63,554 nt of DNA from Escherichia phage vB_EcoP_phi346: the sequence record PV189404.1; one strand, given 5' to 3'. Shown here piece by piece: positions 45,001-48,000 of this stretch (position 1 is its first letter; every line of letters begins with the position of its first letter). Made by a program: the position numbers.

Positions 45001-48000
45001 CTTCCTTGAATGCAGCTGCTTTTTTACCAGTGAAGCCCATCACCAGGAAGACGAATCCGTTTTTGGTGATTTGGTACATTGGGCGTTGTTCGCCTTTGGC
45101 GTCGGTGTAGGTAACGTCCTCAAAATTGAGGGCGTTAAATTTCTCTGAGCATTCAATATTTGCAATGGCACGTAATACGTTATCGTGTCGCTTGCAAAAA
45201 TATTCGGCAACGGCAAAGGACGTAGTAACAGCGCGGCCATTGGAAATGGTGATTTCAGGTTGAGAAAGGACTGGGATAGTAGCCATAATGGCAGCCTCCT
45301 TGATTGGTGATTAATAACCACCGCAGGAGGTGAGAAGCTCGCTGGCGGTGGACTGTACAGGGTTCTCACAACTGGCAATCAAGGGAACCAGCCCGACCGA
45401 AGTCGGCCCCATACAGCCCACCATTGATAAGATGTGCGTGTATGTCGATACAAAAAAAGACGCTGGCGCGTCTGTATCGCCTCGATTGTCAGCGGGGTGA
45501 GAATCCCGACACCCGTTTTATAAGGTGTTCGCCCAATATAGCCCCGGCATCACACGCAGTCAATACCGTCCTTTCTCGGAAATGCTTTGGCGATGTGGCA
45601 GGTGGGAGACCCATTTCGACCCGATTCGGCCTACTTATCTTCAGCAATAGTCCCTCGGGCCTCGCCGCTTTACGTGCGACATATTCCCGTCCATGAACCC
45701 TTCACCACACCCCAAAACATTCCCTGTATTGGTCAGCGCCAACTTCCTGCCAGTGTTGCCCGTTCTCACGCCGTTCTCGCTCTCGCGCGGGGATACTCTC
45801 TCATCGACCGGATCGCACCCGATGATACAGCACGTTTACGTGTAGGGGTCTAAACAGGTCATTGACGCTGTAAAGCTCCAGATTGTTAAAGAGCATTTTG
45901 CGGCGGGTTAAGTCGCGCCGTACGACTGATTTATGTAGCCCTGTGTAAGGGCGCGATGTTTCTGGCTTGAAATAAATATAACTTGCGGTTATTTTCATGT
46001 AAATACCGTCGGTGCTTTTTTAAGGACGAGAAATTATTACTTAACTGATTTTTAAAGTGATTTATTTTTTAAGGGGACAGATAACAGGAGGGGATATGCA
46101 AAGAAAAACCCGGCGCATGGGCCGGGCTATTTATCTGGTCCTGTTCTCATTCAGTAGAGTAGGGGCCAAGAAATCGCACTCCGTTGAAGTGAATAAGATG
46201 AGAAGGTGCATCAGCCACCCATACCTCTGTTTCCCATGCGATTTCACCAAGATATCGCCCCATGATGGAGCGATTTGGAAAAGCGGTCACATAGACAAGT
46301 CCGGCTGTTGATCCGGCAAACAGCCTGGCAAGCTCAGCATGCCGCTTCCCATCAACCGGTCCATGACTGGTGACAGACTCAACCAGTAGCAGCCAGTTTT
46401 TCGCAGTAAAATGTAGCACCACATCTGGCATTTTACCGTGTGAATCCACATCAACACCTAGCCCGGCCAGCAGTGGAGCGTCGAAGTAGCCCCACTTTTC
46501 GCCAGTGTCGCCAGCATAGACCAGCACGCTACCCGGAGCAAAACGTGGGGCGAAGTCCTCTATTATGGCACGGATAAGTTCGCTGTGCTCGCCGGGACTG
46601 AGGGTTATTTGCTGGCCCGCAGCAATTTCAACAGGGATACGATTCTGTTCGCGCTCCTTAGCATAGCGGGTAACCAGCGTTTCACGCTCGGCTAAATAGG
46701 TTGCAAGGCTATCGTGCCATGCCGGGCTGCCGAAAGTGCGTAGCATGGACAGAGCAGCAGGTTCGATCTGATAAACAGCCTTCGGGCTGTTCACTGGGCG
46801 ATCGGGCTTGTCCGGATTGTAGAGGGCTACTCCAGCAGCGCAGAACTGATGCATAGACTGGCGGCGGAATGTCTCACGAGTATTGGGTGCGTAGACCTTG
46901 CCGTAGTGCTCCCGAACCCAATTCATGATTGGTGTAATGCCCACAAGCGGATTTTCCGCGTCGGCCCATGCTTTTCCCGGTGTGAGGTTCAGGAGTGCCA
47001 GCAAACACAAAGCAGAACGCTCATTCTGCTGCGCTCTGGGCAGGCCTAAGGATGCTATAATTTGCTGAGCGGCCTCAATATAATCATTTTGGTTGTTCAT
47101 GCAGTCAGAGCTCCTAGCTTAGCGTCAATATGTTCTTGCGTGAGAGTTTCTTGTTGCATAGCCCACTTGCCAAGCTCTATCAGAGTGTCACGGCTTGGGT
47201 ACTTAATCATCTTGAGGTCGGTTGCATTGACCTGTGTATGCCCGTTGAAGCGACGGAAATACTTATCCACTGCGGTAGTGTTCAGGAACACGGCCAAGCC
47301 ACGGGCCAGCGCCTCGGGTAACCCATGTTTGTTCTCATGAAACACGTTCATGTGATTTTCAAATCCCAACACTGAATACTCACTGAAGGTAGCAGGATCA
47401 ACGACGCTTGCTACCACTCGGCGCTTTTCCTCCTTCGACGAGAAACGACGCACCACACAATAAAAACCGTTCGGGTAAAGCCACTTTTCTGTCTCGTCGT
47501 TGCGCATGATTGCGTTGGGTTTCTTCAAACCTTCCACAGGCCAGACAGTGCTACTCATACTCAAATGGCTCGGGTAGATCAGGGGAACAGTTCCTTCTTC
47601 TGGCATGCTGCGCAAATGAGCTTTCAGTCGGAAATCAACTATCGGTCCGGTCGATACCTTCACGCCAATATCAGCCAGCGAACATTGTACGGCAGATGAT
47701 AACTCAATGGTGCTTTTCTCGAGCGTGGTCGGCACATGAATAAACCGCTCCGAATCGTCCGGGTACACAATCTGGTCAAATGGGTGTTCGTAGGTGACCA
47801 GGTCAAAAAAGCTATCATCGGTCGAAGTTGTGACTGTAACAGCCTCCTGACGGCCTCCACGCTCCAGGCGGATGATAATATTTTCCTGCAACACATCGTC
47901 ATCCCTGAAAGCTTTGCTACGTGATTCGAACAAATGAATATGGCGGATTGCTGCCCGCTCAAGTATGAAATTACGGAACGGACGGTAATACGGTCCGTTG

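Follow-up and report, generated by a model that had tools for sequence, protein, structure and literature searches.

The window analysed here is the whole 63,554-nt stretch of Escherichia phage vB_EcoP_phi346 (PV189404.1), an Eru1-type Stx2a phage of the PA2 / VT2phi_272 / phi349 group, and the element under study is the interval downstream of its early-left promoter PL, all leader features of which lie on the minus strand. This interval is very probably the untranslated leader of the PL operon of a phage without the antitermination protein N. Its anatomy is that of a mosaic, in which an exact boxA is followed by a conserved RNA of four helices. As far as Rfam 15 and the literature covered show, the boxA-linked four-helix RNA appears to be a new item; already known are isrK, C4, the hairpin of the N leader, the boxA of P22/rrn type, and the absence of N.

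The structure of the four-helix RNA was derived from an alignment of 21 representatives and is listed with five helices, P0 to P4 (Table 1). In P0 to P3, 97% of the alignment cells form standard pairs, compared with 27–47% when the partners are slid. Four pairs show compensatory changes on both sides, and in 500 column shuffles the observed values were never reached. The variable P4 forms a hairpin in each of at least six sequence types that are unrelated to one another. In the window, covariance model R1 gives a score of 142 bits at 45861..45743, compared with 142.8 bits in phi80, and it finds exactly one copy per phage; a second copy in the window did not appear even with the filters off. 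There are no R1 matches in lambda, HK022, HK639, or a 933W-type prophage, and no Rfam 15 family was found for 45530..45970, either in the window with an E cut-off of 10 or in four divergent relatives with a cut-off of 1. Matches to the Rfam models bxd_1 and Trp_leader were noise. A description of the phi80 leader RNA structure was not found in the literature, the original phi80 papers and King et al. 2011 being outside the coverage, so that an earlier description is possible.

The boxA lies 33 nt upstream of the four-helix RNA. Its exact 12-mer occurs once in the window and fits the consensus GYTCTTTAANA (PMC5725501), which bears out the preliminary description of this interval, in which an rrn-consensus boxA had been claimed. 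At 45895..45883, downstream of an early promoter, it has the sequence expected of a nut-site boxA (CGCUCUUA / GCUCUUUAA) as well as the consensus boxA of rrn-type leaders, and it is a predicted NusB/NusE site. The linkage to the four-helix RNA is general, as a boxA with no or one mismatch is found 33–38 nt upstream of that RNA in 86 of 86 distinct variants. In the Stx-phage lineage, the boxA is perfect and P3 carries a compensatory change of its own from C-G to U-A, which argues that the module is under selection despite the lack of N. The 851 bases spanning the leader are 100% identical in the short-tailed Stx2a phages vB_EcoP_phi349, VT2phi_272, PA2, PA8, Stx2a_F765, and ArgO145. Identity is about 97%, and there is one indel, in P13374, the O104:H4 outbreak phage, and in TL-2011c, Ss-VASD, and phi191. 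In both the PA2 and the P13374 lineage the four-helix module is unchanged, while the adjacent long hairpin has been remodelled.

More than 100 enterobacterial phages carry the module, each in a single copy. When IMG/VR was scanned for the exact pattern, at least 120 contigs were obtained, which reduce to the 86 distinct variants; among species-representative genomes, the core turned up in Enterobacter (seven matches in six species), Kluyvera, and an Escherichia species. Related sequences are present in HK225, Klebsiella phage KO-TP1, and Edwardsiella phage Edno5 (78% identity). Among the closest known counterparts is the early-left leader of phi80 (X13065). Its homology to the window begins at boxA, includes the same four-helix RNA, and, with 95% identity, takes in the whole of the long hairpin (window 45895..45574); the stretch homologous to 45895..45717, likewise 95% identical, lies between the O-L region and an open reading frame (ORF) annotated as “N gene (AA 1-98)”. 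In contrast to phi80, the window has another immunity region and 5′ segment, and while the phi80 leader leads to the 98-aa ORF and a terminator, the leader in the window leads to an isrK-C4-rha cassette.

The genes that follow the module vary widely, with the phi80 98-aa “N” at 7 of 101 loci, HK225 gp40 at 2, and Rha-type genes at 23; Kil, Gam, and Exo come further downstream. Within −3 to +4.5 kb of the module, the only near-universal gene encodes a CI-type repressor, upstream of the module at 41 of 42 loci, and clustering of the downstream ORFs and of all ORFs in this range yielded no small protein family common to the loci. Since the downstream genes are variable and CI alone is near-universal, the four-helix RNA would act without a dedicated protein partner. 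A strict intrinsic terminator follows on the sense strand within 1 kb of the module at 55 of 81 distinct loci, and the mean number of terminators per locus downstream of the module is 0.95 on the sense strand versus 0.38 on the antisense strand. This excess of sense-strand terminators suggests that read-through is needed. In the window, the terminator downstream of the module is that of the small RNA (sRNA) IsrK.

The put RNAs of HK022 and HK639 are protein-independent antiterminator RNAs, and the module shares its place with one of them. In N-less HK639, the annotated “putL-like antiterminator RNA” follows a 5′ leader CCATCGAAACGAAACATCG...AGCCAGCGGCG (locus L133 9188..9385, minus strand), and the same 5′ leader precedes boxA and the four-helix RNA in phi80 (L009 2940..3030), HK225 (L010), and KO-TP1 (L011). 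Thus, the put-like RNA and the boxA/four-helix module share one slot in the PL leader and are alternative modules exchanged at one position. The 5′ segment of the window differs from this phi80/HK639 leader. Like put, the module lies in cis directly after PL in lambdoid phages that lack N. Unlike put, which has two stems in about 70 nt and no boxA, it combines a boxA with four helices of about 113 nt, and the window has no putR-like second copy. In HK225-type variants (L010 3146..3232, L024, L109, and L119), another conserved hairpin, CCAGCCCA...UGGGCUGG, stands after the four-helix RNA and just before the first gene, where it replaces the lambda-type long hairpin.

Table 1. Location of the PL leader elements, neighbouring cassettes, and other features in the window.
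Feature	Coordinates	Strand	Basis or remark
PL promoter, TTTACA-17-TATATT	45975..46003	−	consensus scan, 10/12 positions
OL-type palindrome ATAACCGCAAGTTAT (candidate operator)	45978..45992	−	read from sequence; overlaps PL spacer and −10
Hairpin 1, GCCCU-UACAC-AGGGC	45938..45952	−	pattern GCCCTnnnnnAGGGC once in window, 0.02 expected
Hairpin 2, (A)GUCGUACGGCGCGAC(U) then UUAACC	45911..45927	−	resembles 5′ end of put RNA
boxA UGCUCUUUAACAA (TGCTCTTTAACAA)	45883..45895	−	exact match to NusB/NusE-binding consensus
Conserved four-helix RNA of phi80-type PL leader, ~113 nt	45746..45858	−	covariation, model R1
P0, CCUGUU/GGCAGG	45858-45853 with 45751-45746	−	
P1, CCC/GGG	45848-45846 with 45761-45759	−	
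P2, CACG/CGUG	45842-45839 with 45834-45831	−	two covarying pairs
P3, UCAYCGG.UG / CG.UCGRUGA	45825-45816 with 45810-45801	−	
P4 hairpin	45790-45771	−	variable
ORF, 65 aa	45801..45998	−	ATG inside −35 hexamer of PL; runs through boxA and hairpin 1
boxB remnant GGCGCUGAC	45729..45742	−	aligns with P22 / 933W boxB GCGCUGACAAAGCGC, 3′ arm missing
ORF, 42 aa	45641..45769	−	GTG start
Long hairpin of N leader	45585..45716	−	homologue of structured lambda N leader; GU-rich boxC-like 5′ arm
ORF, 52 aa	45489..45647	−	TTG start
isrK promoter, TTGACT-17-TATATT	45535..45563	−	start of inserted cassette
isrK sRNA gene, 76 nt	45453..45528	−	Rfam RF01394, 58.7 bits, gathering 50
IsrK intrinsic terminator	45473..45458 + U7	−	terminator scan
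C4-type antisense RNA	45341..45428	−	Rfam RF01695, 77.1 bits, gathering 45
Rha-family regulator / anti-repressor	44639..45286	−	Pfam Phage_pRha 2e-32; PHROG 995 and anti-repressor families; first protein gene of early-left operon
Second isrK-C4-anti-repressor cassette	32291..31311	−	promoter 32291..32262; terminator at end
isrK of second cassette	32255-32182	−	
C4 of second cassette	32156-32073	−	
ORF6N-domain anti-repressor	32020-31343	−	
Rightward early operon: cro, cII-like ORF, Eru1-type replication genes, ninB, Q	49445..54695	+	
BsuBI/PstI-family restriction endonuclease and methyltransferase	46147..48566	−	between cI and terminator/PL
IS3-family insertion sequence	35041..36254		ALIL frameshift pseudoknot
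STnc100 and antisense AsxR sRNA	56794..57053		
Three tRNA genes	55137..55385		

The sequence between the four-helix RNA and the cassette appears to derive from an N leader. The long hairpin (−54.7 kcal/mol, z −2.95) is about 92% identical over 45716..45585 to a segment found in many E. coli prophages, and both of its arms align with the N leaders of lambda (CTTTGGGGTGTG ... CACCAAAGC) and P22, so that alignment and fold point to the hairpin which lies between nutL and the N start in lambda. There, the structured region is acted on by RNase III (cited in PMC5725501). In the 933W-type prophage of O157:H7 TT12A (L003), the homologous segment stands between a P22-type boxB, GCGCTGACAAAGCGC, and the ribosome-binding site (RBS) and ATG of an N gene (4150..4533) that codes for a 933W-type protein of 127 aa (PHROG 271 “anti-termination protein N-like”, 3e-39). 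The RefSeq record of TT12A leaves this gene unannotated and lists only a 69-nt “regulator, partial” pseudogene. The presence of N directly after the same hairpin in TT12A confirms the expectation of the preliminary description that an N gene should lie at this position. Moreover, the window shares with lambda, P22, and 933W the place of the leader downstream of PL, the P22/rrn-type boxA, the GU-rich boxC-like arm, and the ending ...CCAAAGC of the long hairpin. It differs from them by the lack of an intact boxB and of N, by the isrK cassette in the place of N, and by about 143 nt, including the four-helix RNA, between boxA and the boxB position.

The preliminary description was also right that N itself is absent. 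Searches by tblastn with the N proteins of lambda, the 933W type, P22, and phi21 and with the phi80 “N” found no N homologue anywhere in the window or leader, the best E-values of 0.03–0.8 falling at irrelevant places. The annotation of the identical phage phi349 likewise lists no N. For Eru1 phages, lambda N, CII, and CIII have been reported to be without homologues (Llarena et al. 2021, PMC8044961); the lack of N is therefore real but not new. None of the three minus-strand ORFs of 65, 42, and 52 aa has a Pfam or PHROG match or is conserved, and the first of them had already been judged unlikely to be a gene in the preliminary description. The same description had pointed to a 12-codon arginine-rich frame, MREYPRARARTA, which exists but is not a gene. 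Its start codon is ATG here and GTG in relatives, a different 6-codon frame is present in other variants, and since the A of its ATG is one half of the compensatory C-G to U-A change in P3, the frame is a by-product of the RNA helix.

Within the leader, no boxB hairpin with a GNRA-like pentaloop follows a few nt 3′ of boxA. What is left is GGCGCUGAC, aligned at 45740..45732 and continued by |CAAUA, which corresponds to the boxB of TT12A minus its 3′ arm, can form a 4-bp UUGG/CCAA hairpin, and is presumably a relic of boxB. The long hairpin has been lost in part elsewhere. In P13374, its interior (112 nt, window 45707..45596) is replaced by 7 nt (L006 3425..3475), which leaves a short stable hairpin (z −5.3); since P13374 is inducible, the big hairpin is dispensable. 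The resulting length difference of 105 nt is a multiple of three, probably by coincidence. Homology with N-type and phi80-type leaders ends at 45574, where the RBS of N would follow, and the cassette shared with the second copy starts at about 45560..45545, which argues that N was replaced by the isrK-C4-rha cassette. Consequently, a single leader of about 400 nt up to a plain terminator, as first described, does not fit the interval: it is a mosaic running into a cassette with its own promoter, and the supposed leader terminator, “terminator B”, is the terminator of IsrK.

The cassette is of a known kind. isrK has its Rfam score, its own promoter, and its own intrinsic terminator, and the loop of IsrK hairpin 2 contains UUCUCAC, complementary to C4. 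The C4 RNA combines its Rfam score with two loops, CCUUGAUUG and GUGAGAA, which are complementary over 9 and 7 nt to CAAUCAAGG (45306-45298, in the Shine-Dalgarno (SD) region of rha) and to UUCUCAC (45336-45330), in front of the anti-repressor gene. In the second cassette the C4/target pairing sequences differ from these, while within each cassette they match; the window thus appears to hold two P1-immI / P4-like switches of different specificity. IsrK and C4 family membership, an own promoter and terminator, an anti-repressor-type gene downstream, and C4 loops complementary to the target RBS and to the IsrK loop are shared with Gifsy-1 isrK-orf45-anrP, P1/P7 immI (c4-icd-ant), and P4 seqA-CI-seqC. 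In contrast to these systems, the cassette here lies inside the PL operon, in the place of N, and so also receives PL transcription, and a second cassette of different pairing specificity is present at 32.3–31.3 kb. In Gifsy-1, the isrK promoter gives rise to the short IsrK and to a read-through isrK-orf45-anrP mRNA, IsrK activates translation of the anti-repressor-like AnrP in trans, and the C4-like RNA STnc1160 is processed from the read-through transcript; some transcripts from the isrK promoter thus pass the IsrK terminator and drive AnrP (PMC4825925).

At the 5′ end of the leader, PL is found where the preliminary description had placed it. Transcription from it would start near 45968. 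PL lies immediately 3′ of the terminator 46128..46107 that closes the cI-methylase-endonuclease operon, in the same layout as in TT12A, and shares its architecture with PR (49417..49445), namely an AATAAC operator half-site and the same spacer register. The palindrome ATAACCGCAAGTTAT is a candidate repressor operator, whose half-site ATAAC is found again in the OR region (TATCACCTTTGGTTATA, AATAACTGTGCG); an automatic palindrome search for operators gave little, and the likeness of OL and OR comes from direct reading of both promoters. The position next to the terminator, the register common with PR, and the palindrome together give good, though indirect, support to the control of PL by the repressor. 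Hairpin 1 follows, with the stem of lambda boxB and a loop, UACAC, that is not GNRA-like. It is confined to phages with this immunity region and forms part of an immunity-specific 5′ segment that has no cognate N. This hairpin precedes boxA, as first described, and the order of the two is that of rrn leaders, but a meaningful resemblance to rrn does not extend from this, as an rrn-like boxA is normal for a lambdoid nutL (P22, GCTCTTTAAC). Hairpin 2 matches the opening hairpin of the putL-like RNA annotated in HK639 at 14 of 15 positions. The first put hairpin reads GUCGAACGGCGCGAC in HK639 and GACGAACGGCGCGUC in HK022, compared with GUCGUACGGCGCGAC-UUAACC in the window, which fits a pattern, GNCGNACGGCGCGNC, that HK022 putL also matches and that is expected 0.01 times by chance in the window. 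The first put hairpin is thus kept, while beyond the first 15–22 nt neither blastn nor a Smith-Waterman comparison with the HK022 PL/PR region showed similarity to put RNA; this put fragment is probably a recombination scar.

The preliminary description had suggested N-independent antitermination by RNA or host factors. This is the best available idea and gains from the conserved boxA-linked structured RNA, although the overall interpretation is partly supported. We tentatively propose, with somewhat less than even confidence, that PL transcription escapes Rho and the IsrK terminator without N by means of boxA and the four-helix RNA, and that IsrK and C4 gate the anti-repressor. Upon induction or loss of repressor, RNA polymerase starting at PL would transcribe boxA, which would recruit host NusB/NusE together with NusA, NusG, and SuhB. 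P0 would close the insert into a compact domain, and the four-helix RNA would complete or stabilise a termination-resistant complex or, alternatively, might bind RNA polymerase itself, as put does. The complex so modified would withstand Rho along some 650 nt of untranslated RNA and pass the IsrK terminator, so that rha-kil-gam-recT-exo would be transcribed without an N protein. IsrK and C4 would act as in Gifsy-1, P1, and P4, with C4 masking the rha RBS and pairing with the IsrK loop, so that translation of the anti-repressor, and possibly termination too, would be gated separately. In a still bolder version, which appears possible but unlikely, boxA and the four-helix RNA would form a new class of N-independent processive antitermination signal, effective alone or with host Nus/SuhB against both Rho and intrinsic terminators. 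With this signal, phi80-type phages and Eru1 Stx2a phages, that of the O104:H4 outbreak among them, would turn on their early-left genes.

Several observations weigh against the proposed antitermination. The four-helix RNA is known from sequence comparison alone. The single-sequence folding energy of the four-helix RNA is ordinary (z +0.16), so its structure draws support from covariation alone, and most variants in the covariation set are closely related. Neither in sequence nor by model does it resemble put, and unlike HK022 with its putL and putR, the PR operon holds no second module copy. The boxA-alone Nus complexes known from outside rRNA operons reportedly counter Rho in reporters; suppression of strong intrinsic terminators is not known for them, and at suhB their effect is to repress translation and to promote termination by Rho (PMC5725501). 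With rrn leaders (boxB-boxA-boxC; NusA/B/E/G, SuhB, S4) and with boxA-only targets such as suhB and CRISPR leaders, the window has in common a long untranslated transcript with the exact boxA consensus at its start and, as in rrn leaders, hairpins upstream of boxA and a GU-rich segment downstream. It differs in that no homology to rrn leaders extends beyond boxA and that its intrinsic terminator is not a known target of rrn-type complexes. Further, phi80 has a protein called N directly after its leader, by which a protein partner may exist in some phages. Finally, the leader contains dead pieces, namely the put fragment, the boxB remnant, and the hairpin truncated in P13374, and parts of it are thus relics.

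One alternative is that the leader is evolutionary debris, with boxA, the four-helix RNA, the boxB remnant, and the long hairpin left over without function from the time when isrK-C4-rha replaced N. PL transcription would then mostly stop at the IsrK terminator, and the downstream genes would depend for expression on a partial read-through modulated by C4 and IsrK as in Gifsy-1 and P4. The put fragment and the boxB without its 3′ arm agree with this, as does the long hairpin, which is dispensable in that the viable O104:H4 phage P13374 carries it truncated. Read-through of the IsrK terminator in Gifsy-1 happens without any N, and the IsrK loop is complementary to C4 just as P4 seqA is to CI RNA, whose pairing controls termination (PMC4825925). 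Against this, the Stx lineage shows a perfect boxA and its own compensatory change in P3 rather than decay. The module is intact in the PA2 and P13374 lineages next to a remodelled hairpin, and over 100 phages retain it irrespective of the gene that comes after it. We therefore regard this explanation as rather improbable.

The layout of phi80, in which the module lies between the O-L region and gene “N”, with a terminator-like hairpin after that gene, as in lambda, raises the question of whether the four-helix RNA is a nut-like dock for a protein antiterminator other than lambda N, which would be the phi80 “N” in phi80 and, in the window, a protein encoded elsewhere or a host factor. P0 would bring boxA and the boxB-like hairpin together in a way that resembles a split nut site. 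Yet the phi80 N (98 aa) occurs in only the 7 of 101 loci mentioned above and has no homologue in the window by tblastn, and a small protein family common to the loci within −3 to +4.5 kb was not found. The 98-aa protein itself has no arginine-rich N-terminus and no Pfam match, and its only PHROG is of unknown function. Such a docking site is improbable.

Alternatively, the module might act in cis on the first downstream gene and regulate its translation, processing, or stability rather than termination; a Nus-boxA loop would repress translation, and the long hairpin would be an RNase III site. There are precedents, as in lambda nutL, Nus factors, and N together repress the translation of N over a structured leader of about 200 nt and boxA represses suhB translation (PMC5725501), and in several variants an AUG or SD-like AGGAGG abuts the 3′ strand of P0. 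The ORFs abutting P0, however, are short and lack conservation. What comes next in the window is a promoter with an sRNA gene rather than a translated gene, and yet the module is conserved; intrinsic terminators are, moreover, enriched downstream of it. This reading is quite improbable, if perhaps a little more so than a protein dock. A divergent N protein encoded in the interval, for instance from a non-canonical start, can be dismissed as extremely improbable: arginine-rich short frames do exist (MREYPRARARTA and the 42-aa GTG ORF 45641..45769), but tblastn with four N types and the phi80 N was negative, Pfam and PHROG matches are lacking, the frames are not conserved among variants, in which substitutions follow RNA pairing and not codons, and the lack of N in Eru1 phages is published (PMC8044961).

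In the rightward early operon, pattern searches and a terminator scan found no boxA, boxB, or predicted intrinsic terminator between PR and Q, and thus this operon needs no N. A PL/PR repeat search, boxA/boxB patterns, and R1 with filters off likewise gave no second putR- or nutR-like copy in it. At 49998..50204, just upstream of the first Eru1 replication gene, a non-coding gap of 200 nt with G-rich repeats (GGGGGTAAGGGGGTGG...) may be an origin or a regulatory region.

On the other side of PL, the restriction endonuclease and methyltransferase genes occupy the slot between cI and PL that rexAB takes in lambda and, by this position, are presumably co-transcribed with cI in the lysogen. The window further contains stx2AB, three tRNAs, STnc100, AsxR, and the Eru1-type replication genes. 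STnc100 and the antisense sRNA AsxR lie directly 3′ of stx2AB, and the three tRNA genes are upstream of stx2A.

Stx2a phages of this kind are carried by the most virulent lineages of enterohaemorrhagic E. coli, namely O157:H7 clade 8 / PA2 type, O104:H4 of 2011, and O103:H25 of 2006, with early transcription feeding into both induction and the output of toxin. The mere statement that N is lacking is here turned into a defined module of about 150 nt, composed of boxA and an RNA with a covariation-supported structure, which is also present in phi80, a laboratory phage with easy genetics. Should the module prove to be an antiterminator, it would add to the known ways in which RNA brings about processive antitermination and would provide a natural example of a phage boxA that works without N. 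In addition, an RNA switch of the P1/P4 type, in which IsrK and C4 would gate an anti-repressor, is wired directly into the PL operon and may bear on the lysogenic instability reported for Eru1 phages (PMC8044961).

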